Of a stretch of 29,968 nucleotides of DNA, positions 1,938-29,705 are shown piece after piece. The number at the start of each line of letters is the position of its first letter. Position 1 is the stretch's first letter. The notes under the pieces are model-generated. The model saw only the letters and a list, made by a program, of their open reading frames with translations. It was not told the DNA's origin and searched no databases. A program made the position numbers and the translations under genes. The DNA is from Aureispira sp. (lineage in GTDB: Bacteria; Bacteroidota; Bacteroidia; Chitinophagales; Saprospiraceae): contig JAAEPD010000521.1 in NCBI GenBank assembly GCA_024222455.1, positions 1-29,968 on the forward strand, in the 5' to 3' direction.

Positions 1938-3062
1938 ATGGACGAACATAAACACGAATTTGCCCCTGACGAAAAGCTGATTGAAAAAGTACTAAAGCTC
2001 TCTTGTCCAGGTTGTGGTAGTCATTTAACCTACTCTGCCGAAAAACAAATGATTGCTTGCGACCATTGCGGTTTCTCTAAGGATTTTGATAAGGCTAACG
2101 ATATGGTTAGCGAAAACTCCCTTGCAGATGCTCAACAAATGATGGCACAATATACTCCTGCATCTATTTCTAAAAAAGTAGTAGAATGTGGAGGTTGTGG
2201 TTCTCAACTAATGATCGGGGAAGAAGAGGTAGCTGTTCGTTGCAATTTTTGTGGCTCAGAAAAGGTAAATGAAACTGCTTTTGATAAAAATTTGATTCAA
2301 CCACAAGGAATTATTCCTTTCAAGATACCTAAAAAAGAATCTAAAGATAAATTTCAAGTTTGGATAAAAAAAGGATGGTTTCATCCCAATAAACTAAAAA
2401 AACTTGCTGCATTAGGTGATGTACATGGCATTTATGTTCCTTTTTGGACTTATGACGCACATACACATAGTCAGTGGTCTGGCCAAGCTGGTTACTACTA
2501 CTACGAGACAGAGAGTTATACAGATTCTGAAGGAAATCGAAAAACACGTCAAGTTCGCAAAACTCGTTGGGTTTCGCGTAGTGGTTCATTTAGCCATTTT
2601 TTTGATGATGTGTTGGTTGTAGCTTCCAAAGGCCTTCCTCATAATATTATAACCAAGATATACCCTTTCCGATTAGAAGATGTAGTCAACTACGATCCTC
2701 AAGTTTTGGTAGGTTGGGAATCCGAAATTTATAGTGTAGATGTTAATGATGGTTATCGCATAGCTGATGGCATTATGGATGGCCGTCTTCGAGATATGGC
2801 TAGTAGAGATTTGGGTGGAGATACGCAACGCCATTTGAGTGTCAACTCTTCTAAATGGGACCAGACTTTCAAACATATTATTCTACCAGTATGGCTTTGT
2901 GCTTACCAATACAACGGTAAGACTTATCAGTTTGCTGTTAATGGTCAAACAGGTAAAATCAATGGAGAAAAACCATTATCTTGGGTCAAAATCACTTTGC
3001 TTATTTTAGTTATTGTAGCTATTGTAGCAACTATTGTGATACTCAACAATCAAAATTCATAA
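1938..3062 (+). CDS. hypothetical protein with two N-terminal zinc-ribbon pairs (CxxC-x17-CxxC twice) and a C-terminal transmembrane anchor
   Basis: CPGCGSH...CDHCGF and CGGCGSQ...CNFCGS motifs. The C-terminus is a hydrophobic helix (ITLLILVIVAIVATIVIL). The PAP2 gene follows 3 nt downstream on the same strand. Confidence 0.7.
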   Translation: MDEHKHEFAPDEKLIEKVLKLSCPGCGSHLTYSAEKQMIACDHCGFSKDFDKANDMVSENSLADAQQMMAQYTPASISKKVVECGGCGSQLMIGEEEVAVRCNFCGSEKVNETAFDKNLIQPQGIIPFKIPKKESKDKFQVWIKKGWFHPNKLKKLAALGDVHGIYVPFWTYDAHTHSQWSGQAGYYYYETESYTDSEGNRKTRQVRKTRWVSRSGSFSHFFDDVLVVASKGLPHNIITKIYPFRLEDVVNYDPQVLVGWESEIYSVDVNDGYRIADGIMDGRLRDMASRDLGGDTQRHLSVNSSKWDQTFKHIILPVWLCAYQYNGKTYQFAVNGQTGKINGEKPLSWVKITLLILVIVAIVATIVILNNQNS

Positions 3063-6965: not shown

Positions 6966-7024
6966 TTTATTTTAAGTTTTGGATAAACAAGTCCATTAAA
7001 TCTCATATTCTTAAATATAATGCC

Positions 7025-7032
7025 TACTTTTG
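7025..7032 (+). promoter_or_regulatory. candidate Bacteroidota sigma-A -7 element (TAnnTTTG) upstream of the cold-shock gene
   Basis: TACTTTTG lies about 60 nt upstream of the csp ATG. No clear -33 TTG partner is seen, so the call is weak. Confidence 0.3.
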
Positions 7033-7092
7033 TGTTTTATAATATTTTTAAAGGTTGTTTTATACAACTTCTATTTCAAAATTTTGAATGTA

Positions 7093-7296
7093 ATGGATAA
7101 AAGTACAGGTACAGTAAAGTTCTTCAATGAGTCAAAAGGATTTGGATTTATCACACCAGATGCTGGTGGTAAAGATATTTTCGTTCATGTAAGCGGATTA
7201 GAAAACGATATCTACGAAGGAGACAAAGTAAGCTACGATGTTGAAGATGGTAGAAAAGGATTGAATGCAGTTAATGTTCAAGTTGAGCAGAACTAA
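7093..7296 (+). CDS. cspA: cold-shock protein, CspA family
   Basis: [36 protein letters not shown]... carries the canonical RNP1/RNP2 cold-shock-domain motifs. The upstream in-frame ATG at 7030 adds only a junk hydrophobic extension. Confidence 0.93.
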
Positions 7297-7321
7297 GATT
7301 CAATTTATAAATTATTTTTGG

Positions 7322-7351
7322 AAGCCCATCAGCAATGATGGGCTTTTTTTG
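7322..7351 (+). terminator. rho-independent terminator of the csp gene
   Basis: Perfect 10-bp stem aagcccatca / tgatgggctt with loop gcaa, followed by TTTTTTT. Confidence 0.9.
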
Positions 7352-7387
7352 TTCCTCTTTTTCTTGTCTAGAGATTAGACATTATTA

Positions 7388-8413
7388 CTACTCTTTAAGA
7401 ACTTTGATTGTAGTTTCTCCTTCCTCTGTTTGCACTTTTATAAAATAAATTCCCTTTGGGCCTTCTAGTTCTAAATTTATTTCTTGCATTGTATCATAAT
7501 TCTGATGATAAACAACTTTTCCCATGAGGTTAAATATATCTACATTAACATCAGTATACATTTTTTCAAGTCTTAGTCCTAAGGTTCTTTGAGTTGGATT
7601 TGGAAAAACATCTACATTTATTTGCTCTACAAAAACTTCAGAAATATCGGTGATGATAGGGTAACAGTTTGTGCTATATGATCCTGTCCATCCCGTAATA
7701 ATCCAATTGGTTGCTGCATAGGAGGTATCATCTACTTGGATACAGGTAAAATTAGAAGAATACGCATTAAACTCACTAGAGATAATGTTTGTATTGTTTC
7801 CATTTTTCAGGTTCACATTTATCAATTGAGGGCCTCCAAAATGAAGACGAAACAATAAACTATTCTTACTCAAATCTAATGTCGTCAACTGATTATTAGA
7901 ACAAATTATAGTTGATAGGCTTGGGTTAGAACTCAGATTCAATGATGTTAACTGATTCCCAAAACAATTAAAATAAAGTAAGTTTGCATTAGAACTTAGA
8001 TCTAAATTTGTTAATTGATTGTAATGACAATCTAAATACGTTAAAGCTGTGTTTGCACTCACATTTAGAAATACCAAAGGGTTCATGAAACATCTAACCT
8101 CGGTAAGTGCAATATTCATACTAAGATCTAAACTATCTATGCTATTCATAGTGCATGTGAGTTTATCCAGTGCGATAAATGTTTCTATTCCAGTTAAATC
8201 AGTTATTCCTTTATTACTAACATCCATTGTCCCTGAAAAAGCCTGCGCTTCAGAAATTTGGATAGCAGTATCACTATTGGTATTAATAGAAGTGTTAGCT
8301 AGCAGTGTAGCTTTAAAATTAGCGTCTGGAATTATTACTACTTGAGCACTACTTTTAGCGCCTAAGCCTATAAAAAAGAATAGAGTAATTGTTGAAAAAA
8401 ATAAGTTGTTCAT
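7388..8413 (-). CDS. leucine-rich-repeat surface protein with a signal peptide and a T9SS type A C-terminal sorting domain
   Basis: Tandem LRR units (LTNLDLSSNANL, LTSLNLSSNPSL, LTTLDLSKNSL). C-terminal Por-secretion sorting domain (VFPNPTQRTLGLRLE...IYFIKVQTEEGETTIKVLKE). N-terminal signal peptide. Confidence 0.85.
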   Translation of the reverse strand: MNNLFFSTITLFFFIGLGAKSSAQVVIIPDANFKATLLANTSINTNSDTAIQISEAQAFSGTMDVSNKGITDLTGIETFIALDKLTCTMNSIDSLDLSMNIALTEVRCFMNPLVFLNVSANTALTYLDCHYNQLTNLDLSSNANLLYFNCFGNQLTSLNLSSNPSLSTIICSNNQLTTLDLSKNSLLFRLHFGGPQLINVNLKNGNNTNIISSEFNAYSSNFTCIQVDDTSYAATNWIITGWTGSYSTNCYPIITDISEVFVEQINVDVFPNPTQRTLGLRLEKMYTDVNVDIFNLMGKVVYHQNYDTMQEINLELEGPKGIYFIKVQTEEGETTIKVLKE

Positions 8414-8730
8414 GGGTAAGTTTTTTTTATCTAAAATAGGTTGTTTAAGGTATTCTATTCGGGATAGATAAATTGAGCCGCAAGATATAACAAGTATTTA
8501 TATTTTTATACATTAAAGATATTCAGTATATATCATCACGAAAAAGCACATAAGACTATGTCTACAATGCAGTCTCCTTCCAATAGATTCAAGCATCCAT
8601 CATAAACACCTAATTAATTCCCCGCAACTAGCTCAGCTTAAACAACAATCCATAAACCACTATTAAACAAGAACTTAAAACACTTCCTTTGTTTTATTTA
8701 AAATAAATATTCTACAGTGGGAACTTATGC

Positions 8731-8796
8731 CCCCTTGACTTAGTTTAAGAAGTGTGCAAAGTAGTTAGTTTCAAATTTAAACTAAGTCAAAGCCCC
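8731..8796 (+). promoter_or_regulatory. 14-bp perfect inverted repeat (TTGACTTAGTTTAA / TTAAACTAAGTCAA) with a 28-nt spacer and flanking CCCC tracts; the TTAGTTT motif occurs three times
   Basis: Read directly from the sequence. Left arm 8735-8748, right arm 8777-8790. An additional direct TTAGTTT copy lies in the spacer at 8764-8770. The element sits about 80-140 nt upstream of the MVP start codon. Confidence 0.45.
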
Positions 8797-17395: not shown

Positions 17396-20300
17396 TTATC
17401 GAACAATTGTCACTGTTCCTTTATAAGGTACAGGATTATCAAAACCAGGGAATGTCACTAATATTACATAGTAATAAGTAGCATCAGCTACATTTTGGCC
17501 ATTGTTTGTTCCATCCCAAGTACCATCATAATTGGTAGCTTTAAATACCAATTGTCCCCATCTATTATAAACTTCTACTTCGTTGTCATATAAAGTCAAA
17601 CATGGGATTTCCCAGAAATCATTGACTCCATCTTTGTTTGGTGTGAAACCAGCATGTTGAGGTACACAACGTCCAACTGGAATTGGAACTGAAACAGTAT
17701 CACTACAACCATAATTATCAGTTACTTCTAACAAATAAGTAGTTGTCTCCAATGGTTGAGTTGTAGTACTTGCAGCAGTAGGATCAACAACCCAAGTTGT
17801 TGGAGTCCAAACATAAAATAAATTGTTACCAACACTTGCACTACCATCTAGTGTAGCAATCTGCCCTAAGAGCAATTCACTTGCAGCATCTGTAGTAGCA
17901 ACAGCATCTACAGTATTAAATGTAGCACCTAATGTAGCTGTATTACAAGTCAAAGCATCTGTAGCAGAAACAGACCAAACATCTCCATCTTCTAAATTGA
18001 TAGTATGCACTCCTGAAACATTATTAGCATCCACTAAATATGGTGCACTAGTTCCATTGATGGTTACCGTAATAATATAGTCAGCACTACCCGCAGTCAA
18101 CGCAGGTAAACCTCCAGTCAAGGTAATATCCAATTCTGCATTACCAACACTATCACAGTCATAAGTATAAGTCCCTGTTCCACCATTGATTGCTACATTG
18201 GTATATCCAGGATCATTACACAAGTTACCACAAGTAGAAGGTGTCCATGCAAAAGAACCAGCAGTACTGTCTTCACAGTTGCCATCAGAAACAACAACAA
18301 CCCAGCTGTCACCATCTGTTACTTGGAAAGTATAAGCTACTGTGTCATTTATTTGACCAGCTACAGGTATTTGATAACCACTGTTTCCAGTTGGGCCTAT
18401 AATTGTTACTAAGTAATTAGAAGCATCAAAGCTTGGCTGACCTCCAGACAAGGAAATAGTGATATCTGCTGTTTTGTCAATATTACAAGTATAATTTCCA
18501 GCTGTTACACCAATATTTGCTAAGGCACAAACATTAGGACAGTTGGCTGCATTAAACACATACGCCCCAGTTTCACTATCTGTACAGTTAGACTGATCTG
18601 ATACCGTTATAGTCCAATTATCTCCATCCTCTACTGTAAAGGTGTACTGTACACTGTTGCCAACTACTCCAGCAACCTGTGCATTCGATACATTACCCCC
18701 TGTACTTGCTGTAGATCCTGTAACAGTTACATCATAATTAGATGCATCGTAAGAAGGCTGTCCACCAGCAATAGTTACCGCCACAGAAGCAGAACCATCA
18801 CCATTACAGGTATAAGTATAAGGACCCACTACCAATGGATCTAATAAACAAATGTTACAGTTCGTTGCATTGTAATTGTATGTAGCAGAAGCCGTATCTA
18901 CACAGCCACTAGAGTCTGTTGCGACTACTTGCCATGTATCTCCATCATTAACAGAGAATTGGAAAGCTCCAGCTCCTTGTACATAAGAACCATTAGCTCC
19001 AGCAAAATTAGACCCCGAAACTACAATAGACTGATAGTTGCCTGTTGCAGCAGCCTGTCCACCTGATATATATAGTGTTACTAATGCTGTTCCATTAGCG
19101 CTACAAGTATAAACCGTGCTATCTATTGGATCTGGTAAGATTTGAACAGGATTAGGGCCACAAGGATCACAATCTTGCAAATAATTGAATGTTCCAGTTG
19201 CAGTATCAGCACAAGCATTAGAGTCTATGGCAACAACCTGCCAGTTATCTCCATCACCTACACTAAACTGGAAGGCACCTGTACCTTGTACATAAGTACC
19301 GTTGCCACCAACTGTAGAACCCGTAACTGTTATAGATTGGAAGTTTCCACCATTAGCTCCAGCTGCTCCACCTATTAAGTATAAAGTAACTGTTGCTGTA
19401 GTAGCTGGTGTATTACAAGTATAAACACTACTATTGACTGGATCAGGTAATATTTCTACTGGCATCATTGCACATGGATCACAATCCGTCAAGAAATCGT
19501 AAGCATCACTAAGTGTATCTGCACACATTGCAGTGTCAGTCACTATCATTTGCCAGTTATCTCCATCATTAACAATGAATGAGAAAGTAGATGTACCTCC
19601 TACAACTCCAGGAAGTGTTGCATTAGTATAATTTTGTCCAAATACAGTAGAACCCGCTACATTAACAGTATAGTTACTACCATCATTGGTAGGAGCACCT
19701 CCGCTTACAGTTACTTCCACTATAGAAATACCACTAGCCTGACAATTGTAACTATAGTTGGCAATTACAGGATTAACAGCACAGTAATCTGGACAGTTTG
19801 TTAAGTTATATGTAAATGTATGTGAAGCAGTATCAGCACAAGCATTAATATCGCCTGCTATAACTTGCCATGTATCTCCATCTCCTACAGTAAATGAGAA
19901 TGGGGTTGGAGCAGCACCGTTATTATCAGTTACATTGTATGTTGTATTTTGTCCAGGAATTGTAGAACCTGAAACATTTACAATATAATCACCACCTGTT
20001 GTACTTGGCTGACCTCCTGTCAAGAAGATAGTCACCAATGCAGAATCACCACCAGGCAAACAAGTATAAACACTGCTGTCTATTGGATCAGGAGTAATAA
20101 ATACAGGATTGTTTTTACAAGGATTCAAACAAGTTGCTGCATTGATCGATATAGTAACACCACAACCTGAATTATCGAAAATTTCTACAGTATATACATC
20201 AGCTGTTGGTACAGAAACAGACTGTACAACACCATTACCCATTGTTCCCATACTAATTGTATCACCGATAGTATTGGTTACTACCCATGTAAAGTCAGAA

Positions 20301-23092
20301 CCATTGTACGCAGGTTCTCCACCACTAGCAGAGAATCCAATCACACAATTGTTAGGATCATAAGTTTGTGTAGTTGTTATTTGTTGTAAGAATACAACTG
20401 GTGCACCATTTTCGATACTAGCACTTGGACAAATCAATTGTCCCCAATCGCTAGCTCTATCTGCCATCGCTGTTACGTGATAAACGGTATTAAATTGAGG
20501 ATTTCCGAAAGATCCACTACCATTACCATCGTTCACAAAATGGTGAGGTCCCAAAAATACAGAATCTAAATAACCAAAGTTACCATTGATAATAGAATCT
20601 GGTAATGGTGGAATGCTATCATGGATAACATATCCTAAACCCATACAATCAGGAATCTTACTAGTAGTTAATCCTAACCCGTCAAACATTACACTAGGAA
20701 GGATAGTATCATTATAACAAATGAATGCAGTATCCATGCTGTTGTAATTAATAGTATCTCCATGCTGAGTTGTATAGCGAGAATCACCTGCATAAACTTC
20801 TTCTTCGTTGATATACTCTATAATATACTGCCCTTGATCACCAGGCGAACCACCATCCAATTGGATAACATAAGTTTGTCCAGGATTCAAGCAACATAAA
20901 TCAACAGTAGAACCATTGAAACCAGTACTACCAAAAGCAATTGGTGTAACCTGCTGTGTACCCTGAGTACCATCTTCAGTATAAGTAGCACCTCCTATAG
21001 TTGTTGGACTCAATCCACCATAGCAAGTATCACCACCTAAAAGTTCATACACAGAATAGTTCAATGTATCTAATCCAATATAAGCACGCAAACGCATCTC
21101 AATAACACCAGAAGGTGGGGCTACAAAGTAATGCCAAACCGTTTGGTTAGCTCTATTACTATCTACAGTATGAGAGAATGGCTCACCTGCCAATGTCTCT
21201 ATACAAGCATTTTCGTTAGTACCTGCTACAGAACCAAAAGTTAATGGCGGTTGACCAATCAACTGTACAGGCACCTCATAGATAGAATCTGAATTTGTTA
21301 AACACAAAATATCATTACCTGGAGGGTTTTGAGTAGGATCAGCAATACTAGGATCATAAGCCCATACTTCAGCTTCATTAGCTAAAGAAACGCCTTGAGG
21401 ATCAACCATACCATAGTAAGTATAGCCTGGCTCCAAACAACGTCTCTCTATAATAGCTGTTTTATTAGAACTCAAAATACCAGTTCCACCTTCTACATCT
21501 TCCAGTTGTGTCAAGTTAGCACAAGACATATCTGCTGGAGTACCAGGAGCAAATCTAGCATCATAAGCATAAAAAGCTAAGTTTTCGGTCTCATTCAAAG
21601 GACCAGCATCTAAATCGCCTTCTAAATAGATACGTCCACTAGGCCCTGCTGTAAACTGAAACCACATACTACCATTCAACCCATTTCCATTAGGAGAGGT
21701 ATAAGTATAAGCTACATAGTCCTGAGCATTGTTTCCTGTAAATGGAGCATCAATTTCTTCATCACTAACTCTATCTGTAGTCAACTGTGTTGATTCTGGT
21801 AATCCATTAGCTTCTGTACGTACAGTAGTAGATTGTGCATCTGCTGTAATATCTGTACCTTGACAAGGTATGTCTACGCCATCAAATGGGCTACCACCAA
21901 TATCTTCTATTCTGATACCAATGTACCCTCTTTCGTTAGCATCATCTGTGGTCAACTGTATATAATAAGTTTCCCCTGCTATTAAGGCATGACCATCACG
22001 TATACTTGGTGCAACATTAAGTACATCACCAAAATGTGCTGTAGCCTCAGCACTTGGATTGATAACAGGAATATCATCATCGGCATGACCTTGGTAAGAA
22101 AGGTAATCGAATTTGTTTTTGATAGGTGTTGGCCCTACATATCCAATATAATTATTGAATCCTGCCAAACAACCTAATCCATCAGCTGCATGGTATAATG
22201 CTAGCTCTGTTCCAAACTCAGTAGTTGCTACATCTGTTTCAATGGTCACTTGACCACTGGCAGGCGCTACAAAATAGAACCAAGCAGAACCATGTCCACC
22301 ATTAGCTACACTATTAAATTCTGGCTCATCACCATTAGCATCCATAGTTAAAGGACCACACCAAGCAAAAGCTTGAGTAGTATTATTAACAGGTATCTGT
22401 ATAGCATTACAAATATCATCTTCGGCTACATTCACAGATAAAGCTAAACGAGTAACCTCAAATGTAATTTCATAATCTTGTGGACAACCACCATCTGTAC
22501 TACTCAACATTCTAGTGATAGGTCCACTAGTACCAGGTGCAGCAGGAACAGGAATATTGAAAGCTTCTATAATTGTTTCTCCATCCATACCTCCAATACC
22601 ACCATTGTAAGATTGTGTTAAATCATCATTATCATAAGCAATCCACCGCATATTCATGACCGTAGGTACATCTGAGGCACAAGGGTACTCATGATTAAAA
22701 AATAATCCATTCCCTGGAATATATTCAGCATCGCCTGAATTAAGAAAGCAAGTACCTCCAATATTAGGGCCTCCTGGAACTAATGTAAATGCTCCATTAT
22801 TATTATCAACATAGGCATGATTAAAATCACCACCTAATCGACCATTCACTAATCCAAAAAGATTAGCTGAAGAATTATTATTGGTTTTTCCAATAGTGTT
22901 ATCTGTTGCTTGAAACTCCCATGTAAAATCACTCTCACAGGTAGCAAACCCATCACAATCTTCATTTTTAGTAACTTCTACAGATGTTACTCTCACTTGG
23001 ACAATAGCTTGCCCATAGCTACTATTCAGTGCAAAAATCATTAATACACAGGCTAAACAGCCACGTGCTAATGTGTAAGTAGTTCTTAACAT
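17396..23092 (-). CDS. giant cell-surface adhesin-like protein (1898 aa) with ~7 tandem ~100-aa Cys-framed beta-rich repeats and a gliding-motility-associated (type B, CHU_C) T9SS C-terminal domain
   Basis: N-terminal signal peptide. The C-terminus carries the TIGR04131-type motif GFTPNKDGVNDFWEIP...YNRWGQLVF. Internal repeats are of the form C..NPV.ILPDP.DS.VYTC...V.GS...G.NG.YVQG.GAFQFSV.DGD.WQVVA.DS..CADT. The paired porP/sprF gene follows. Confidence 0.88.
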   Translation of the reverse strand: MLRTTYTLARGCLACVLMIFALNSSYGQAIVQVRVTSVEVTKNEDCDGFATCESDFTWEFQATDNTIGKTNNNSSANLFGLVNGRLGGDFNHAYVDNNNGAFTLVPGGPNIGGTCFLNSGDAEYIPGNGLFFNHEYPCASDVPTVMNMRWIAYDNDDLTQSYNGGIGGMDGETIIEAFNIPVPAAPGTSGPITRMLSSTDGGCPQDYEITFEVTRLALSVNVAEDDICNAIQIPVNNTTQAFAWCGPLTMDANGDEPEFNSVANGGHGSAWFYFVAPASGQVTIETDVATTEFGTELALYHAADGLGCLAGFNNYIGYVGPTPIKNKFDYLSYQGHADDDIPVINPSAEATAHFGDVLNVAPSIRDGHALIAGETYYIQLTTDDANERGYIGIRIEDIGGSPFDGVDIPCQGTDITADAQSTTVRTEANGLPESTQLTTDRVSDEEIDAPFTGNNAQDYVAYTYTSPNGNGLNGSMWFQFTAGPSGRIYLEGDLDAGPLNETENLAFYAYDARFAPGTPADMSCANLTQLEDVEGGTGILSSNKTAIIERRCLEPGYTYYGMVDPQGVSLANEAEVWAYDPSIADPTQNPPGNDILCLTNSDSIYEVPVQLIGQPPLTFGSVAGTNENACIETLAGEPFSHTVDSNRANQTVWHYFVAPPSGVIEMRLRAYIGLDTLNYSVYELLGGDTCYGGLSPTTIGGATYTEDGTQGTQQVTPIAFGSTGFNGSTVDLCCLNPGQTYVIQLDGGSPGDQGQYIIEYINEEEVYAGDSRYTTQHGDTINYNSMDTAFICYNDTILPSVMFDGLGLTTSKIPDCMGLGYVIHDSIPPLPDSIINGNFGYLDSVFLGPHHFVNDGNGSGSFGNPQFNTVYHVTAMADRASDWGQLICPSASIENGAPVVFLQQITTTQTYDPNNCVIGFSASGGEPAYNGSDFTWVVTNTIGDTISMGTMGNGVVQSVSVPTADVYTVEIFDNSGCGVTISINAATCLNPCKNNPVFITPDPIDSSVYTCLPGGDSALVTIFLTGGQPSTTGGDYIVNVSGSTIPGQNTTYNVTDNNGAAPTPFSFTVGDGDTWQVIAGDINACADTASHTFTYNLTNCPDYCAVNPVIANYSYNCQASGISIVEVTVSGGAPTNDGSNYTVNVAGSTVFGQNYTNATLPGVVGGTSTFSFIVNDGDNWQMIVTDTAMCADTLSDAYDFLTDCDPCAMMPVEILPDPVNSSVYTCNTPATTATVTLYLIGGAAGANGGNFQSITVTGSTVGGNGTYVQGTGAFQFSVGDGDNWQVVAIDSNACADTATGTFNYLQDCDPCGPNPVQILPDPIDSTVYTCSANGTALVTLYISGGQAAATGNYQSIVVSGSNFAGANGSYVQGAGAFQFSVNDGDTWQVVATDSSGCVDTASATYNYNATNCNICLLDPLVVGPYTYTCNGDGSASVAVTIAGGQPSYDASNYDVTVTGSTASTGGNVSNAQVAGVVGNSVQYTFTVEDGDNWTITVSDQSNCTDSETGAYVFNAANCPNVCALANIGVTAGNYTCNIDKTADITISLSGGQPSFDASNYLVTIIGPTGNSGYQIPVAGQINDTVAYTFQVTDGDSWVVVVSDGNCEDSTAGSFAWTPSTCGNLCNDPGYTNVAINGGTGTYTYDCDSVGNAELDITLTGGLPALTAGSADYIITVTINGTSAPYLVDANNVSGVHTINLEDGDVWSVSATDALTCNTATLGATFNTVDAVATTDAASELLLGQIATLDGSASVGNNLFYVWTPTTWVVDPTAASTTTQPLETTTYLLEVTDNYGCSDTVSVPIPVGRCVPQHAGFTPNKDGVNDFWEIPCLTLYDNEVEVYNRWGQLVFKATNYDGTWDGTNNGQNVADATYYYVILVTFPGFDNPVPYKGTVTIVR
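17930..20040 (-). repeat. intragenic tandem coding repeats, ~7 copies of ~300 nt, diverged
   Basis: The protein-level repeats of the adhesin are visible at the nucleotide level as diverged tandem copies, e.g. the ...ccttgtacataagtaccgtt / ...ccttgtacataagaaccatt blocks. Coordinates are approximate. Confidence 0.6.
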
Positions 23093-23319
23093 AAATTAGT
23101 AAGTTTTATAGATTTCTAGTATAAAGGTTTATAGTTCATTAAATTATCTACTTTTGGGCCTAAAAAAATAGGCCTTCATAGAACATTAATAGGCGAATTT
23201 AGGAAAAAATTAACATTAGTCCGTATGAATAAGGTCATTTTTAAATATAGTCCATGTATTCACTTTAGTTTTTATCTATTTTTATTACCTTTCATTTTCT
23301 ACAGAACTAAACTATTTAC

Positions 23320-23345
23320 TTGAATCAAGAATATTCTTGATTCAA
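23320..23345 (+). promoter_or_regulatory. perfect 26-bp palindrome TTGAATCAAGAAT|ATTCTTGATTCAA, 14 nt upstream of the SIR2-CHAT start codon
   Basis: Read directly from the sequence. The reverse complement equals the sequence itself over all 26 nt. The position overlaps the translation-initiation region of the 23359 gene and lies in the divergent intergenic region shared with the adhesin gene. Confidence 0.6.
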
Positions 23346-23358
23346 AACTTAATACTAT

Positions 23359-24876
23359 ATGAATCCATCTACTTGGCGTCACTTCTATAAGAGTTTACAC
23401 AAAAACTCTTGTATTTTAATCTTGGGGCCCCGCATCGCAACTTTCTTAGGAGAGTCAGGGGAAGAACAAATAGATCAAGCTTTTTCTAGACAACTCTCTA
23501 AAGAGATTGAAGATAAAAACAATGCAAGTACTACTGCAAACAAAATATCTTTTGATTCCTCCCAAAGAGATAACTTACCTTATGCCTCTATGCGCTGGAC
23601 CAAAGGGCTAAGAATGAAGGATACAATTCTTAGAGAAGAGTTGTGTAGTTTCTTTGATAACTCAGTGAGTAGGCCTCCTAAAATTTATAAAGATTTAGCC
23701 AAGCTCCCTTTCTCTCTAGTTATTAATACTAGCCCTGATGAGTATATGCATCAAGCATTTATGCGAGTAGGCAAAGAGGCAGAACAACTTCATTACAACT
23801 ATCAACGAAATCAAGCGTCTTTAACTCCTGAAATAAGCATTGATAAGCCTGTGGTTTACAACCTTTTTGGAACAATAGAAGAAACAGAATCCTTGGTTAT
23901 TACGAAAGAAGATCAGGTCAATTTCATCAATAATCTGCTTGGAAATACCTCTACCCTTCCAAATGAGATCTTGCAACATTTTGACGAACATAAAACTTAC
24001 TTATTCTTAGGTTTTGACAGTAATGATTGGCATCTTCCTCTCCTATTTAGGAGTTTGCGCTTGCACAAAGAAAAAGAAATGTCCTTTTATTTACATGACA
24101 GTCCTATAAAAGCAGCTACTAAAGATTTTTATATAGACTCCTTTGACTTTCAGTTTGTATCAAATGATGAAAATACATTTGTACATGATTTAGCTCAAGG
24201 ATATATTGAATGGGAAGAGAGCCAAAAAGGAAAATCTAGCAATACTAATGAAAGTTCAAAACCAAGCTATATCACTTCTCCACAACCAGGAGTAAAAGGA
24301 AAAGTAAATATATTAATGATGACAGCGAACCCTAAGGATACAGCTGCAATAGAACTCAATGACGAAATAGATGTCATTGAGGAAGTACATATGCGAGGCA
24401 CAGAACGTAGTAAGTTCTTTTTCAAGCCTATTCTAAATACTAAAAAAGCTCGTTTATTAGAATTACTTCTACGACACAATCCTCAAATCGTGCATTTTTC
24501 GGGGCATGGTACGGGTCGGGCTGGATTGGTTTTTTATGGAGAATCGGGCAGTGCAGATATGGTTCAAGGGCCAGAGTTAGCTAACCTATTCAAACAATTC
24601 AATACCCAAATTAGCTGTGTCATTCTCAATGCTTGTTACTCTGAAGAACAAGCCCAAGTTATGGCTCAATATATTCCTAATGTAATTGGAACCAATAACG
24701 CAATTGATGACCAAGTTGCCATCAAATTTACAGAAGGATTTTACACCGCAATTTTTGCAGGCAAAAATTATGAAGACTCCTTTAATTTGGGAATAGCTCA
24801 TGTAGGCTTGCACAGTTTTCCAGAAGGTGGTCGTCCTGTATTTTATAAAGATGGTAAAAAAATAGATGCAGCATAA
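23359..24876 (+). CDS. SIR2-like (SIR2_2/DHS-like NAD-binding fold) domain fused to a C-terminal CHAT caspase-like peptidase domain
   Basis: 505 aa. N-terminal half has SIR2_2-like blocks: ILILGPRIATFLG (Rossmann start), LVINTSPDEY (TTNYD-like), VVYNLFGTIEETESLVITKEDQV (KLHGS...lvlTeedY-like) and YLFLGFDSNDWHL (lFiGySl.D-like). C-terminal CHAT: PQIVHFSGHGTGRAGLVF (His) and CVILNACYSEEQAQ (Cys). The stop overlaps the start of the next gene (TAATG). Confidence 0.8.
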   Translation: MNPSTWRHFYKSLHKNSCILILGPRIATFLGESGEEQIDQAFSRQLSKEIEDKNNASTTANKISFDSSQRDNLPYASMRWTKGLRMKDTILREELCSFFDNSVSRPPKIYKDLAKLPFSLVINTSPDEYMHQAFMRVGKEAEQLHYNYQRNQASLTPEISIDKPVVYNLFGTIEETESLVITKEDQVNFINNLLGNTSTLPNEILQHFDEHKTYLFLGFDSNDWHLPLLFRSLRLHKEKEMSFYLHDSPIKAATKDFYIDSFDFQFVSNDENTFVHDLAQGYIEWEESQKGKSSNTNESSKPSYITSPQPGVKGKVNILMMTANPKDTAAIELNDEIDVIEEVHMRGTERSKFFFKPILNTKKARLLELLLRHNPQIVHFSGHGTGRAGLVFYGESGSADMVQGPELANLFKQFNTQISCVILNACYSEEQAQVMAQYIPNVIGTNNAIDDQVAIKFTEGFYTAIFAGKNYEDSFNLGIAHVGLHSFPEGGRPVFYKDGKKIDAA

Positions 24877-26633
24877 TGAGTCAACAACATAAACATAATC
24901 GTTATCCTGGTATTCGCTCTTTTGAGCAGTACGAAAGTGCCCTGTTTTTTGGAAGACGCCAAGAAACTCGCGAGCTTTATAGCCTCATAAAAGTAGAACA
25001 ATTTGTAGTTCTTTTTTCTAAATCAGGATTGGGAAAAACATCCTTGCTTAATGCAGGGGTTTTACCATTATTAGAACAAGAAGAATATAGTTCTGTTAAG
25101 GTGCGTTTTCAGAACAAAGGAGTCTCACCTTTAAATATGCTGTGGAATGCTGTCAAAAGCAGAATGGAAGAACTGCAGATAGACTCCATGGTAAACCAAC
25201 GAATAAAAGCTTGGTGTGGAAACCGCCCCCCTAGTCTTTGGGAATATTTCAAAGCTTGTTCTATGGTAATGAATTATTTGCCAGCTGTTCCTATTCTAAT
25301 TTTAGATCAATTTGAGGAGTTTTTTATACACTCAAAGAAAGATCAATCCATATTGATTCAGCTCTTAGCTGATATTATCTTTGGACGTGTACCCACAGAT
25401 GTTCAGAAAACCCTAAAAGAAAAAAAGGCTCCAAGCGCCCGAGATGAACAATGGACAGAACCGCTTAACTGGAAATTAGTATTTGCTATCCGATCTGACC
25501 GCTTGAGTATGTTGGATAATTTGAGTGCTCAGATACCTCCCATTCTGAGCAATCGCTATCAATTGCATCCGCTTAGCAAAAGAAAAGCTGAGGAAGCTAT
25601 TTTACTCCCTGCTCAATCTGGCGCTTATGATTTTGCATCTGATAAATTTAATTACTCTGATGATGCTTTAGATGATATTATTAATAATCTGAGTAACGAA
25701 AAAGGAGAAATTGAGTCTTTTCAACTACAAATCATCTGTGGGCATTTAGAGGATATTGTAATTCAAAAGCAGCTAAAAACGGTTGAAGTTCATCATATTG
25801 GTGGAGCTGATGGCATCAAACAAATTCTAAATAACTACTATCGAAATCGAATAGATTCTATAGGTACTGCCGAAGAGCAACAACTAGCTACCAAACTCAT
25901 TGAGGAAGGCTTAATTGTAGATGGTGCAAGAGTTAGTCTTGCTGAATCTATTGTAACAAGTCGATATAATATAACAGATTCTTTATTGAGTAAGTTACTA
26001 GCTACTCGTTTAATAAAACCAGAAAACACGCATTTAGGCAAGGCTTACGAGGTTTCACATGATACACTAGTTGCACCAATTCTCACCTCTTTTAAGCAAC
26101 GTAAACTAGAGGAAGAACGACTACAACGTGCCCAAGAAAAAAAGGAGCAAGAAGAAAAATTAGCAGCTCAACAAGCTGAATTAGAAGAAGAACAACGTCG
26201 TCGTCGTCAGGCCAACCGTAGAACAACCATAGCTGTAGGATTTGCAATACTTGCCTTGATTGCTTCTATTGCGGCATATATACTCTGGACAAAGGCCGAG
26301 ACTGCTACTGAAGCAGCTGTAAATGCAGTAAAAAATAGAGAGGCACAACTCAGGGTATCAGATAGTTTAAGAATAGTTTCAGATAACGCAAGAATAGAGG
26401 CTGAAAGAAGTCTTAAGGATTATCATTTAGCAGAGGTAAAGCGTCTTAACACTAAAATTAATATGATGAATAGTTCAAGTCAGTTTAAGGCAGAAAAAGA
26501 GTTGCATACGAAGCGTTTAGTCTTTATCGAAAAAGTGCTCAAAAACTCTACCACTACACCTGAAGAACAACAAGAAATGGAAGCCTTGCAAAAACAAGCA
26601 GTTGCTCGTCTTGAAGAACTTAAGGATTATTAA
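24876..26633 (+). CDS. STAND-class P-loop NTPase with a C-terminal coiled coil, one TM helix and a further coiled-coil tail
   Basis: 585 aa. FFGRRQETRELYSLI...VVLFSKSGLGKTSLLNAG is the Walker A element with the preceding FxGR motif typical of STAND/AAA_16-like NTPases. PILILDQFEEFF is Walker B (hhhhDQFEE). LVFAIRSDRL is a sensor-like motif. Then comes a K/E/Q-rich coiled coil, the TM helix TIAVGFAILALIASIAAYILW and a ~115-aa C-terminal coiled coil. Translationally coupled to the upstream SIR2-CHAT gene. Confidence 0.8.
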   Translation: MSQQHKHNRYPGIRSFEQYESALFFGRRQETRELYSLIKVEQFVVLFSKSGLGKTSLLNAGVLPLLEQEEYSSVKVRFQNKGVSPLNMLWNAVKSRMEELQIDSMVNQRIKAWCGNRPPSLWEYFKACSMVMNYLPAVPILILDQFEEFFIHSKKDQSILIQLLADIIFGRVPTDVQKTLKEKKAPSARDEQWTEPLNWKLVFAIRSDRLSMLDNLSAQIPPILSNRYQLHPLSKRKAEEAILLPAQSGAYDFASDKFNYSDDALDDIINNLSNEKGEIESFQLQIICGHLEDIVIQKQLKTVEVHHIGGADGIKQILNNYYRNRIDSIGTAEEQQLATKLIEEGLIVDGARVSLAESIVTSRYNITDSLLSKLLATRLIKPENTHLGKAYEVSHDTLVAPILTSFKQRKLEEERLQRAQEKKEQEEKLAAQQAELEEEQRRRRQANRRTTIAVGFAILALIASIAAYILWTKAETATEAAVNAVKNREAQLRVSDSLRIVSDNARIEAERSLKDYHLAEVKRLNTKINMMNSSSQFKAEKELHTKRLVFIEKVLKNSTTTPEEQQEMEALQKQAVARLEELKDY

Positions 26634-27214
26634 ACAATTGATTGCATTTTTTCCTTCATCTGCTTTGCAAAATAGAAATATAGGAGCAAATATAAAGGCA
26701 TGCCCAAAACCAAGTAAATCACAGCACCTTCTGGACCATAATTTTGGTTAATAGCTTTGTAAAATTGGTTCTGGGTTAAAAAGGATTGCAACAAAAGATA
26801 TAGAAAGCCTACAAAAAGGCCAATATTTAGAATCATTAGCACAGTTCCTAATGCACCAGTAGGCTGTATAAGTAACCCTCCTATATATACAATCCAAGAT
26901 AAAATATAAACCATCAAGGTCAGTTTAGAATAGGACCTGAAGTTTTCATAAATTGCCTCTGCTCTAGTATAGGAATGATTCTCAAGATTTCCTGTCAATT
27001 TCAGATGCTCCTCATCCAGACCTCTTTCTTTTAGGATTGAGATAGCTGCATCTCTCCATTCCAAAGCATAACCATATTGTCGATAGTTTTTGACAACATC
27101 CATTAGTTTTTCGGTATCCAAATTCTGCAATCGTTCTATTGGCTCATCCATTTTAGCTTCTAGTTTTGGGTATAATATACAAAGTACTACTTTGGGTGTA
27201 TAAATAAAAGCCAC
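26630..27214 (-). CDS. hypothetical polytopic membrane protein, 194 aa
   Basis: Three or four hydrophobic helices (LTLMVYILSWIVYIGGLLI, TVLMILNIGLFVGFLYLLL, VIYLVLGMPLYLLLYFYF). Its stop codon overlaps the stop codon of the convergent NTPase gene (tTAa). Confidence 0.55.
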   Translation of the reverse strand: MAFIYTPKVVLCILYPKLEAKMDEPIERLQNLDTEKLMDVVKNYRQYGYALEWRDAAISILKERGLDEEHLKLTGNLENHSYTRAEAIYENFRSYSKLTLMVYILSWIVYIGGLLIQPTGALGTVLMILNIGLFVGFLYLLLQSFLTQNQFYKAINQNYGPEGAVIYLVLGMPLYLLLYFYFAKQMKEKMQSIV

Positions 27215-27485: not shown

Positions 27486-29705
27486 ATGAAAAATTACTTT
27501 TTTATTTTATGGTTTATTGCTAGTGGCAACATCCTATTGGGGCAAAATAATGCCTTAACTTTTGATGGTGTAGACGATTATGTAGAAATGGCTAACAACA
27601 CTATTGTTGGTTCTACAACAATGACAATAGAAGCTTGGGTTAATTCAAGCGCTATTGGCTCTGATGGAATATTTTCGATAGAAGGAGTAGTCAATTGTAT
27701 AGTCTCAAATAATGGAAATGTTCGATTCTTTTTTGATGGAAGCTCAAGCGGTTCTACAAATTTTGCTGCAGGCATAAACGATGGTGCTTGGCACCATGTA
27801 GCAGCAACTAATGATAATGGGACAACTAGAGTCTATGTTGATGGTGATTTATTAGGCACCCAATCCGAATTGGTAGATACTGCAACAATCAATTCGTTGA
27901 ATAGACCTGTTACGATTGGAGCTTTAAGTCCTGGTTCTGGACCAGGTAGCTTTTTTCAAGGAATGATTGATGAGGTTAGAGTATGGAATGTTGCTCGTAC
28001 AGAAACAGAAATTCAAAACAACATCTGTCAACTCTCAAATCCAGCTTCTGAACCCAATTTGGTGGCTTATTATGATTTTAATCAATCTACAGGAATGCTT
28101 TTATCTGATTTAGGACCATCTAGTTTTAATGGTGCGTTGATGAATATGATAGGAACAGAATGGTCTGCAAGTTCTTGTCCTTTAGCTAACATAGCATCTA
28201 TCTACCCAAAAGTTTCTTCTAAACTGACAGATGCATACCCTATAGAGATGCCTAACCTAAATGCTTATCCATTGTATGCACATGCTGAAGTAAAACCAGC
28301 ATGGGCTGTAAACTTGACTAATGTTGAGTTTTTGGTGAATGGAACTACACCAATCCCTACTACCCAAGAAGATGGCTATTATATGGCTTGGTGGACACCC
28401 ACATCTACAGGCAGCCATGACATCCATGTGAAAGCTACTGCTAGCAATGGAAATTCTACCACAGATACAATAACCGTAAATGTTGTCGATACTGCATCGA
28501 ATAGAAATGTACAAACATTTGATGGTGATTTAATTGATTTTGGTAGCGCTTCTAGATGGTTTTATGGCACTTACACCTTGCCTCAATCTATAGGCGCCTA
28601 TGATCAGATCATTGCTAATTTTTCAGTTACCTGCCCTTCTATTTCTGGAGGTTGCGATGACTGGGATCGATTAGCTTATGTAGAATACAAAGCACCAGAT
28701 GGTTCTTGGATGGAGTTATTCCGCTATATTACACCTTATGGAGTTGCTTGCAATCATAGTATAGATGTTACGGATTATGCATCTTTGCTGCATGGCAATA
28801 TCGAACTAAGAATGTTTATTGACACTTGGGGGTCTGGTGGCTGGGATATTCACTTAGATTTTGACTACATTGCAGGCACCCCCACTTATCTGTATTCCAG
28901 CATACAAGAAGTATGGCATGGTAGTTATAATTTCGGAAATCCAGCTGATTTACAGCCTTGTGATACTGTTTCTATAGATTTTCCAGCCAACTCTCAAAAA
29001 GCAACTTTTAGAGTTACGACTACGGGGCATGGTTGGGGAAGCAACAACACCTCAAATGCAGCTGAATTTTATAACGCTACACATCAGTTTCACATTAATT
29101 CTGCGCACATTTTTACGCAAAATCTGTGGAACACCTGCAACCCTAATCCAGATAACTGTACCAACCAAAATGGCACATGGTACCATAATAGAGCAGGTTG
29201 GTGTCCAGGCGCTATTGCACCTCCCAATACTTATGATTTAACACCCTATATTGGCTCAAGTCCATTTGATTTTGCATATGTATTCCAACAATCGTATCAA
29301 GATCTTTGTCACCCTAATAATCCATCTTGCGTTAGTGGAACAACTTGCTCTGATTGTAATGCTGGATATAATCCATTTTATAGAATTGGAGGTTATATGA
29401 TTAGCTTTAGCAATGCTCCTGTCATCACTAGCACTTTTGGATTAGAAGAACAAGAAGAATTTGACTTAATAGTCTACCCTAATCCTAATAATGGTATTTT
29501 CAATATGAATTTAGCTAACCCAACAACAGAAACTGTTGTAACGGTTAATGACATATCAGGAAAAACTCTAAAAACATATTACTTTGGCAATAATGAGGAG
29601 TTGAATAATTATCAATTTGATCTCTCCAACTTAAGCTCAGGAGTATATTTCATTAAGATTAATACAGAAAAACAAGAAACGGTTAGAAAATTAGTATTGC
29701 ATTAG
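27486..29705 (+). CDS. secreted multidomain protein: LamG/concanavalin-A-like lectin domain, then a PNGase F-like (peptide-N4-(N-acetyl-beta-glucosaminyl)asparagine amidase F) two-domain core, then a T9SS type A C-terminal sorting domain
   Basis: Signal peptide. The LamG_3-like block is LTFDGVDDYVEM...WHHVAAT...RVYVDG...IDEVRVWN. The core is colinear with recalled Elizabethkingia PNGase F: CDDWDRLAYVEYK matches CDEWDRYANVYVK; SIDVTDYASLLHGNIELRMFIDTW matches EIDVTDFKSLLSGNTELKIYTETW; DFDYIAGTPTYLYS matches DFDIVYGTPDYKYS; RAGWCPGAIAPP matches RAGWCPGMAVPT; FYRIGGYMISFSN matches FYAISSFVIAKSN. The C-terminus FDLIVYPNPNNGIFNMNL...VYFIKINTEKQETVRKLVLH is a T9SS CTD. Confidence 0.85.
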   Translation: MKNYFFILWFIASGNILLGQNNALTFDGVDDYVEMANNTIVGSTTMTIEAWVNSSAIGSDGIFSIEGVVNCIVSNNGNVRFFFDGSSSGSTNFAAGINDGAWHHVAATNDNGTTRVYVDGDLLGTQSELVDTATINSLNRPVTIGALSPGSGPGSFFQGMIDEVRVWNVARTETEIQNNICQLSNPASEPNLVAYYDFNQSTGMLLSDLGPSSFNGALMNMIGTEWSASSCPLANIASIYPKVSSKLTDAYPIEMPNLNAYPLYAHAEVKPAWAVNLTNVEFLVNGTTPIPTTQEDGYYMAWWTPTSTGSHDIHVKATASNGNSTTDTITVNVVDTASNRNVQTFDGDLIDFGSASRWFYGTYTLPQSIGAYDQIIANFSVTCPSISGGCDDWDRLAYVEYKAPDGSWMELFRYITPYGVACNHSIDVTDYASLLHGNIELRMFIDTWGSGGWDIHLDFDYIAGTPTYLYSSIQEVWHGSYNFGNPADLQPCDTVSIDFPANSQKATFRVTTTGHGWGSNNTSNAAEFYNATHQFHINSAHIFTQNLWNTCNPNPDNCTNQNGTWYHNRAGWCPGAIAPPNTYDLTPYIGSSPFDFAYVFQQSYQDLCHPNNPSCVSGTTCSDCNAGYNPFYRIGGYMISFSNAPVITSTFGLEEQEEFDLIVYPNPNNGIFNMNLANPTTETVVTVNDISGKTLKTYYFGNNEELNNYQFDLSNLSSGVYFIKINTEKQETVRKLVLH

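Follow-up and report, generated by a model that had tools for sequence, protein, structure and literature searches.

A major vault protein homolog and a two-gene SIR2-like-CHAT/nSTAND1 module in the variable flank of an Aureispira genome

Genes and transcription units of the window

We analysed a stretch of 29,968 bp (the window), which is an entire contig of an Aureispira sp. metagenome-assembled genome (MAG) and carries a gene for a major vault protein (MVP) homolog together with genes for surface proteins, CHAT proteases and a STAND NTPase. The window is tiled by 19 open reading frames (ORFs) of at least 100 amino acids (aa), and its proteins are recorded at NCBI as MCP4442173-MCP4442180, with locus tags GY810_24965-25000. 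The original prediction had read the 19-kb range from 7388 to 26633 as one cluster of eukaryote-like families, in which MVP, a leucine-rich repeat (LRR) surface protein, two CHAT proteases, a SIR2-like domain, a STAND NTPase and adhesins of the type IX secretion system (T9SS) serve cell-cell interaction, conflict and regulated cell death. Pfam and NCBIfam profiles, with which we assigned families to the window proteins, found each of the named families in its place. As a whole, the stretch is probably a mosaic of independent modules in the hypervariable flank of one Aureispira genome and not an MVP-centred system. The gene pair encoding the SIR2-like-CHAT protein and the nSTAND1 NTPase is its sole co-inherited multi-gene unit.

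Six modules may be distinguished. The first of these would be a monocistronic MVP gene (8874-11381, plus strand; 835 aa, MVP_shoulder E = 4.2e-30), which stands alone on its strand and is followed, 22 nucleotides (nt) past its stop codon, by a terminator-like hairpin (11403-11433, plus strand) with a 12-bp stem that includes 5 GC pairs. The second would combine the minus-strand genes of a DUF6794 protein (12152-12709; 185 aa, PF20594 E = 2.1e-28) and a TPR-CHAT protein (12801-15962; 1,053 aa, CHAT E = 4e-56, TPR_12 E = 9.5e-32). In a third, also on the minus strand, an adhesin of 1,898 aa with a CHU_C / T9SS type-B C-terminal domain (17396-23092; PF13585 E = 4.3e-22, TIGR04131 E = 4.5e-15) would belong with a PorP/SprF T9SS outer-membrane protein (16213-17187; PF11751 E = 8.9e-62, TIGR03519 E = 5.2e-68). 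Two further minus-strand genes would be modules of their own, namely that of an LRR protein with a T9SS type-A C-terminal domain (7388-8413; 341 aa, Por_Secre_tail E = 3.5e-11, TIGR04183 E = 1.1e-11, internalin-like LRR E = 2.4e-24) and an orphan ORF of 204 aa (11461-12075) that had no match in Pfam, NCBIfam, PADLOC or PHROGs; this orphan, like the LRR gene, was probably inserted recently. The sixth would be an NLR-like conflict module on the plus strand, made up of the SIR2-like-CHAT gene (23359-24876; 505 aa, SIR2_2 E = 5.9e-11, CHAT E = 3.1e-08) and the nSTAND1 gene (24876-26633; 585 aa, PF20703 E = 1.6e-30, 107.5 bits against a cut-off of 27.1). The stop codon of the former and the start codon of the latter overlap by 1 nt (TAATG), and the two genes are probably translationally coupled.

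The genes of the stretch alternate in strand, and at least six transcription units are indicated, with hairpins in between. Terminator-like hairpins were found after the MVP, DUF6794 and PorP genes, and another lies between the adhesin and PorP genes. The one after PorP/SprF (16157-16188, minus strand) consists of a 14-bp stem followed by a T-run, and the one between the DUF6794 gene and the 204-aa ORF (12087-12126) is a palindromic 17-bp hairpin that is flanked by an A-run and a T-run and resembles a bidirectional terminator.

The SIR2-like-CHAT/nSTAND1 gene pair

A gene for a SIR2-like-CHAT or SIR2-like-TIR protein adjoins an nSTAND1 gene in 14 of 14 contexts, which have unrelated surroundings, show both gene orders and span 28-67% identity. 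None of the 13 contexts other than the window contains MVP. Four bacterial SIR2-CHAT homologs (L047, L049, L050 and L051; 35-49% identity) are each followed by nSTAND1, whereas the SIR2-like-TIR genes of L056 and L058 are each preceded by it. In six metagenomic loci with full-length SIR2-CHAT and in the Methanosarcina loci, the downstream protein measures 583-1,311 aa; those of 1,245 and 1,311 aa, of the Methanosarcina type, are blank in the Pfam precomputation and match our custom nSTAND1 hidden Markov model (HMM) at 1e-34 to 1e-47. The metagenome scan, which used CHAT-domain peptide patterns, otherwise returned mostly CHAT-only relatives, and 4 of 74 other loci of the CHAT clade had a single-helix nSTAND1-like ORF after the CHAT match. 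At least two further SIR2-CHAT paralogues are present on other contigs of the same MAG, one of them beside nSTAND1 (MCP4438575, MCP4438576).

Two side observations concern the composition of such loci. The Methanosarcina-type systems (L048 9726-14412; L052 7724-12593; L059/L060) have three genes, which encode a stand-alone SIR2_2 protein (about 315 aa), a SIR2-CHAT protein with canonical motifs and an nSTAND1-like NTPase of 1,245-1,311 aa with one transmembrane helix (about 1e-45). In the window, a 194-aa ORF with three to four predicted transmembrane helices and no family match (26630-27214, minus strand) is convergent with nSTAND1, the two sharing 4 nt at the 3' end of the latter; none of the other loci examined has it after the pair.

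The AlphaFold2 (AF2) model of the SIR2-like-CHAT protein (pLDDT 88.6) consists of two domains joined by a flexible linker (residues 294-300): a SIR2-fold domain (residues 1-293, nt 23359-24237, plus strand) and a CHAT domain (residues 310-505, nt 24286-24873, plus strand). The catalytic dyad of the CHAT domain, H383 (HFSGHG) and C426 (LNAC), is invariant in an alignment of 25 homologs. This half of the protein is closest to SAVED-CHAT (8tl0, E = 5.6e-29) and has weak NCBIfam similarity to HetF (E = 0.0024). The SIR2-like half was matched by Foldseek to ThsA (6e-14) and to DSR2, KomC and Avs5 (about 1e-8), and it aligns with ThsA (6lhx) by sequence as well (E = 5.9e-13). In ThsA, N112 and H152 are both needed for NADase activity. 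Their equivalents in the window protein are S125 and F170, and the glycine-rich 'GAG' loop reads 'LGP'. The SIR2-like domain of the original prediction is thus borne out as a fold, whereas the canonical catalytic residues are absent from it. As distant relatives (Methanosarcina, L059-L065) keep the GAG, (T/S)NYD and xHG motifs alongside CHAT, the loss in the clade of the window protein is derived.

A full-library search with the SIR2-like domain returned 846 representatives (50% identity clusters) at E <= 1e-10. At the position of the catalytic histidine, none of the best 150 of these has histidine; phenylalanine (94), tyrosine (28) and leucine (16) occur instead. Pfam scans of 103 of these best 150 representatives found TIR_2 in 66, EAD11 in 10, CHAT in two and nSTAND1 in one. 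A natural fusion of nSTAND1, the SIR2-like domain and EAD11 (P0334) shares the same degenerate motifs.

These features bear on whether the SIR2-like domain is a scaffold or is still an enzyme, that is, an NADase or ADP-ribosyltransferase with a remodelled active site that would act as a second effector beside CHAT. The latter is unlikely, yet has some claim to attention: the SIR2 fold is clear, N123, D127, N168 and G171 are strongly conserved, and the distant homologs named above combine canonical motifs with CHAT. Against it, the residues equivalent to N112 and H152 are replaced throughout the clade, with a hydrophobic residue in place of the histidine, the GAG loop is altered, and the domain recurs as a constant coupling module that is fused to EAD adaptors and directly to nSTAND1.

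The nSTAND1 protein has Walker A (residues 48-56, SKSGLGKTS) and Walker B (residues 140-148, ILILDQFEE) motifs. Its NTPase is followed by a coiled coil that ends in an arginine-rich basic patch, a predicted transmembrane helix (residues 450-471, nt 26223-26288) and a helical C-terminal domain of 110 aa. As the NTPase must be cytoplasmic, a location outside the cytoplasm is predicted for the variable C-terminal domain. All 14 nSTAND1 partners of SIR2-like genes have one transmembrane helix behind the NTPase. The C-terminal domains of these partners vary, from the 110-aa helical domain of the window to LRR (L056) and a region of about 900 aa (L050), and LRR, WD40 and FGE occur in database homologs. 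The window protein has no C-terminal repeat or lectin-type sensor (FGE, LRR, WD40 or TPR), and no relative of solved structure was detectable by sequence. In PADLOC, no Avs/NLR sensor model matched it; the sole hit, CorA-like and weak (E = 2.4e-4), covers the transmembrane region.

The gene pairing, domain content, catalytic-residue status, predicted topology, effector swapping and fusion protein are direct results; the direction of signalling, the interaction surface, the trigger, the substrates and the outcome of the module we infer by analogy, as follows. The inner membrane would anchor the nSTAND1 protein, whose NTPase would face the cytoplasm and whose variable C-terminal domain would be outside. 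A signal at the outer domain or at the membrane would convert the NTPase to an oligomeric, NTP-bound state, which would recruit and activate the SIR2-like-CHAT protein, probably through the SIR2-like domain as coupling scaffold. Targets in the cell may then be cleaved by the CHAT domain, so that the affected cell stops growing or dies. The pair can tentatively be regarded as an uncharacterised class of transmembrane NLR-like receptors, in which an outer sensor acts on a STAND NTPase and the NTPase on a protease or TIR effector by way of a scaffold SIR2 domain.

Several known systems resemble parts of this module. It shares with the nSTAND1 conflict NTPases of Kaur, Iyer, Burroughs & Aravind 2021 (PMC8195603) the NTPase clade itself, the links to caspase-like, TIR and EAD domains and the variable C-terminal sensors of homologs; these authors predicted that nSTAND1 is a clade of STANDs directed against invaders, with caspase, TIR and EAD modules either built in or recruited. 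Unlike in the systems described there, the effector is a separate polypeptide with a SIR2-like domain that lacks the histidine, the NTPase has a single transmembrane helix, and the sensor of the window protein is helical and 110 aa long. Coupling of protease-gated effectors to STAND sensors has experimental support in other systems (bioRxiv 10.1101/2025.11.14.688446). As in Avs5 / SIR2-STAND (9jap, 9nc9), a SIR2-fold domain is combined with a STAND NTPase, and the SIR2 halves are similar in fold (E about 1e-8). Avs5 is soluble and consists of one polypeptide, in which the SIR2 effector is catalytically active. The window module, by contrast, has two genes, a membrane anchor, no catalytic histidine, an added CHAT protease and no PADLOC Avs/NLR match. 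ThsA of Thoeris (6lhx, 8bto) is the best fold match of the N-terminal half, but the equivalents of N112 and H152 are replaced and both a SLOG domain and a ThsB partner are missing, so a Thoeris-like identity fails on the defining features. Like SAVED-CHAT (8tl0), the protein has an N-terminal regulatory domain followed by a C-terminal CHAT domain; unlike it, the regulatory domain is SIR2-like instead of SAVED, the partner is a STAND NTPase, and neither CRISPR nor a cyclic-oligonucleotide synthase is nearby. In the searchable literature, no description of the SIR2-like-CHAT/nSTAND1 pairing was found under the names SIR2-CHAT, CHAT-SIR2 or SIR2-caspase, which is weak evidence of novelty.

Alternatively, the pair might be a signalling module that senses contact or the envelope and serves development or the recognition of self and non-self in a bacterium that is filamentous and glides, CHAT then being a processing protease. 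The predicted position of the sensor outside the cytoplasm, the LRR, WD40 and FGE domains of homologs, which suit extracellular ligands, the T9SS adhesin genes beside the pair in the window and in L058, and the weak HetF similarity of the CHAT half would fit such a role. We consider it improbable, as several diverged paralogues in one genome, the swapping of CHAT, TIR and EAD11 effectors, hypervariable sensors and a patchy distribution that reaches Methanosarcina are traits of immunity and conflict, and published predictions place nSTAND1 in counter-invader systems (PMC8195603).

The MVP gene and its surroundings

The MVP-like protein contains the MVP shoulder domain PF11978 at residues 518-629 (104.6 bits against a cut-off of 25). 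The sole vault-repeat profile match is Vault_3, at 27.9 bits and just under the cut-off of 28.8 bits. Its AF2 model is poor overall (pLDDT 51, with the N-terminal half below 50) and confident only at residues 518-765; we used only the shoulder and the cap helix from it, and TM-scores are not meaningful. The model suggests a beta-rich N-terminal half, an SPFH-like shoulder at about 518-629, a cap helix at 630-765 and a C-terminal helical region. The cap helix is continuous over 135 residues (pLDDT about 80-89), and further helices extend to residue 832. Among PDB structures, Foldseek placed vault MVPs of human, rabbit or rat in the first 12 ranks (E = 7e-12 to 1e-8, over 625-806 alignment columns with 15-20% identity), well above flotillin, HflK/C, stomatin and all SPFH proteins. 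A phmmer search against PDB chains gave no match even at E <= 10. Like eukaryotic vault MVP (PDB 4v60, 9bw5), the protein has a shoulder and a long cap helix and aligns in fold over most of its length; unlike it, identity is 15-20% only and the N-terminal repeat array is not confidently modelled.

The window gene, whose product NCBI labels 'hypothetical protein', is a true though distant homolog of MVP and belongs to a family already known. Exact-sequence look-ups for this MVP and for P0014 found no record. Bacterial MVP-like proteins were described by Daly et al. 2013 (PMC3762200) and Sokolskyi 2019 (bioRxiv 10.1101/872010), with members in Saprospira grandis (H6L4P8), Microscilla marina (A1ZGE7), Plesiocystis pacifica and others. 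We found more than 6,700 bacterial homologs at E <= 0.001, and 46 species-level loci come from Saprospiraceae, Cytophagales, Sericytochromatia, Myxococcota, filamentous Desulfobacterales, Caldilinea and others. Identity to the window protein is 69-71% in Saprospira/Aureispira loci and 50-60% across other phyla; length and the layout of shoulder and coiled coil are equal, and there is no substantive difference from the known bacterial proteins. As for the other vault components (vPARP, TEP1 and vault RNA), the window holds no PARP or TROVE/TEP1 domain and no Rfam family, and PARP and TROVE/TEP1 domains are not among the most frequent Pfam families in the MVP flanks.

Upstream of the MVP start codon, at a distance of 75-150 nt, lies an inverted repeat (8726-8799) with 23-nt arms that are 83% complementary and a 28-nt spacer. 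The core of the repeat, GACTTAGTTTAA ... AAACTAAGT, is unchanged in the two relatives whose MVP is 92% identical, while the DNA around it varies; the repeat may act as an operator or form a hairpin in the 5'-UTR.

To the original prediction, MVP might be functionally linked to the CHAT, SIR2 and STAND genes. Among the loci of 46 species-level genomes, 42 have a complete MVP ORF, and we compared their flanks, which amount to 520 kb. SIR2-like, CHAT and nSTAND1 HMMs had no match in these flanks (0, 0 and 0), and the TPR-CHAT query had one, in L001. MVP thus occurs without CHAT, SIR2 or STAND genes in 41 of the 42 species-level loci, and does so in L055, a close relative, as well, which contradicts the proposed link at the locus level; an MVP gene devoid of these neighbours was what the prediction itself had named as evidence against it. 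When the 19 window proteins were compared by tblastn with the 46 MVP loci, each with up to 10 kb per side, the matches were limited to MVP, a CHAT fragment in L001, a weakly similar response regulator in L041 and, in L009, a CHU_C tail.

No other gene takes the place of a partner. In all-against-all clustering of 544 flanking ORFs, no family was present in more than seven loci, and the recurrent clusters reflect close kinship, for example among Sericytochromatia. In nine Saprospiraceae loci, the commonest Pfam families of 89 flanking ORFs were VWA, Clp protease, helicases, Uma2 and thiolase; in 31 loci of other phyla, those of the 95 immediate neighbours were response regulators, histidine kinases and DUF1963. 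Neither census contained a recurrent MVP partner, and none adjoins MVP across phyla. The flanking family found in 7 of 46 MVP loci was considered as a partner but is limited to few loci; it comprises an ORF of about 557 aa directly downstream of MVP in the Myxococcota loci L014 (10582-12255) and L016 (12499-14172). Bacterial MVP genes appear to be lone genes without a conserved partner. This means that their function must come from biochemistry and not from association with neighbours.

Fine synteny was examined by blastn of the window against L053, L054 and L055, loci of two relative lineages with 92% identical MVP. The shared blocks are 7039-7350, with a cold-shock gene (CSD, 7093-7296, plus strand, 66 aa) and its terminator-like hairpin (7320-7347), 8650-11381, with MVP and 220 nt upstream of it, and 12164-15879, with the DUF6794 and TPR-CHAT genes, which is common to L053 and L054 only. 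Between them lie two window-specific insertions: 7351-8649, which holds the LRR gene, and 11382-12163, which holds the 204-aa ORF and a hairpin. In these closest relatives, the cold-shock gene is directly upstream of MVP on the same strand, whereas in the window the LRR gene sits between them. MVP is directly followed by DUF6794 in L053 and L054, which lack the 204-aa ORF, and by PAP2, methyltransferase and CoA-transferase genes in L055. The window has no homology to these loci to the right of 15879, where L053 has a 333-aa ORF and an amino-acid kinase, and the adhesin and STAND modules are missing from both relative lineages. The shared and non-shared blocks indicate an ancestral context in which the cold-shock gene was followed by MVP, with a hypervariable right flank. 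The cluster is thus not conserved in related genomes. A role of the cold-shock gene as conserved RNA-binding partner of MVP was rejected, as the adjacency is seen only in the three closest loci.

A further neighbour of MVP is the TPR-CHAT gene. Its product consists of an N-terminal hydrophobic segment, a TPR array, a CHAT domain that keeps the dyad H878 (LAMHG) and C925 (LSACE), and a C-terminal transmembrane helix (residues 1027-1051). The DUF6794 gene lies downstream of it on the same strand, and the DUF6794 protein has a signal-peptide-like N-terminus (hydrophobic residues 1-19); the two genes are retained as a pair in L053 and L054. By these predicted features, the pair looks like an envelope-associated protease unit. 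The caspase-like protease of the original prediction is recognisable in the CHAT domain and its dyad, but the hydrophobic N-terminus, the transmembrane helix and the neighbour with a signal peptide are unlike a cytoplasmic cell-death caspase. The combination of TPR and CHAT is shared with Csx29 of Craspase. In contrast to Craspase, no type III-E CRISPR effector adjoins the gene and there is no sequence relatedness to solved Csx29; phmmer against the PDB matched TPR proteins only, with no Csx29-like match, and the window holds no cas gene or CRISPR array. A Craspase-like identity was rejected on these defining features.

It is possible that MVP in Saprospiraceae is tied to the neighbouring TPR-CHAT protein, together with DUF6794, for instance in processing or turnover of MVP assemblies, as no more than 2 kb separate TPR-CHAT from MVP in the window, in L053 and L054 and, differently arranged, in L001. 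We regard such a tie as quite unlikely. The adjacency is absent from L055, the other eight Saprospiraceae loci and all 31 loci of other phyla (0/31), and the TPR-CHAT proteins of L001 and the window are distant (35% identity over 97 aa). The two window genes do not share a strand, and a terminator-like hairpin follows MVP. Different compartments are likely, since TPR-CHAT has hydrophobic and transmembrane segments and DUF6794 a signal peptide, whereas MVP has no hydrophobic segment.

A mosaic of modules

Two modules of the stretch belong to the T9SS. The LRR protein, which has a signal-peptide-like N-terminus and a type-A C-terminal sorting domain, is an ordinary T9SS type-A cargo whose gene was probably inserted recently. 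The PorP/SprF gene is 208 nt downstream of the adhesin gene on the same strand. PorP/SprF is the usual partner of T9SS type-B cargo, and cargo-partner pairs of the SprB/SprF type are known in gliding Bacteroidota. The window resembles these in that a large CHU_C/TIGR04131 protein is followed by PorP/SprF on the same strand; unlike these, the 1,898-aa adhesin has no recognisable domain besides the C-terminal CHU_C sorting domain (Pfam). Within its gene, a unit of about 312 nt (about 104 aa) is repeated in tandem, in at least four diverged copies, at 18614-20124 (repeat families D1-D5). A further T9SS cargo gene, with LamG and PNGase-F domains (27486-29705), lies just beyond the 7388-26633 range.

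T9SS cargo genes also flank two of six unrelated Bacteroidota nSTAND1 loci. In L058 (7394-13302), an nSTAND1 and SIR2-like-TIR pair stands beside PorP/SprF and a giant CHU_C adhesin, as in the window at 16213-23092, and in L050 two T9SS type-A cargo genes are upstream of the SIR2-CHAT/nSTAND1 pair. These shared neighbours may simply reflect the abundance of T9SS cargo in Bacteroidota.

The left flank of the window consists mostly of housekeeping genes (LytTR response regulator, phosphatidylserine decarboxylase, PAP2, RtcB and ABM-domain protein) and also has three ORFs without confident family. Its gene at 1938-3062 (plus strand) encodes 374 aa, with zinc-ribbon motifs at the N-terminus and a transmembrane helix at the C-terminus; PAP2 and two small ORFs without annotation come next, PAP2 being the family that directly follows MVP in L055. 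The GC content of the window is 0.31-0.41, with no sharp island boundary. The 1-kb windows of lowest GC (0.31-0.32, against 0.33-0.41 elsewhere) are 7001-9000 and 12001-13000, of which the former covers the LRR-gene insertion and the latter adjoins the 204-aa ORF insertion, both being window-specific. Searches for tRNAs, Rfam families at gathering score, PHROGs and repeats found no tRNA, vault-like RNA, other Rfam family, mobile element or prophage in the window and no repeats flanking the inserted segments. A sigma-70 promoter scan, which is unsuited to Bacteroidota, gave 64 matches against 73.5 in shuffled sequence and was disregarded.

As T9SS cargo genes also flank other nSTAND1 loci, SIR2-CHAT paralogues exist elsewhere in the MAG and the cluster is unconserved, our analysis suggests indirectly that the genes may not be clustered beyond chance. 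It is highly improbable that the whole stretch is a single island for conflict or cell death whose CHAT, SIR2 and STAND genes cooperate with MVP, which would, for example, be their container or scaffold: the genes are co-localised in the window, MVP, DUF6794 and TPR-CHAT stay adjacent in L053 and L054, and MVP-carrying taxa overlap lineages reported to be rich in conflict systems (PMC7159879), but MVP lacks these neighbours in nearly all loci, the SIR2-like-CHAT/nSTAND1 pair recurs without MVP, and the stretch is divided into separate units on alternating strands, with hairpins between them and intervening genes that are lineage-specific insertions. The idea of a eukaryote-like island therefore fails, while parts of it survive. 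The DNA to the right of MVP is accessory in the sense that it is variable, with whole-gene insertions and deletions between relatives with 92% identical MVP, but a single functional region that includes MVP is not supported at the locus level. Cell interaction and conflict are represented by the T9SS surface genes and by one credible conflict or death module, SIR2-like-CHAT with nSTAND1, and a functional link of MVP to them is not supported.

Some points run counter to the mosaic of independent modules and to the mechanism proposed for the pair. Within Saprospiraceae, TPR-CHAT lies within 2 kb of MVP in two arrangements, downstream on the opposite strand in the window and L053 and upstream on the same strand in L001; this proximity may be more than chance. 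Many MVP loci are on short contigs, and 20 of the 42 have at least 5 kb on both sides. The terminators and the transmembrane helix are pattern-based predictions. N123, D127 and N168 are conserved in the SIR2-like domain, which may retain a non-canonical activity. No PADLOC model covers the pair, for which domain logic alone points to a role in defence, and the contact between nSTAND1 and the SIR2-like domain is putative.

What our analysis isolates from the stretch is a testable two-gene module, in which a membrane-anchored nSTAND1 is paired with an effector, protease or TIR, that is joined to a SIR2-like domain. If the mechanism proposed here is right, bacterial STAND/NLR-type immunity would extend to sensing outside the cytoplasm, and a SIR2 domain without canonical catalytic residues would join the known adaptor domains. 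A receptor class of this kind would, if it exists, be a bacterial counterpart of receptor-to-apoptosome signalling, in which a SIR2 enzyme domain has been turned into a non-catalytic module.

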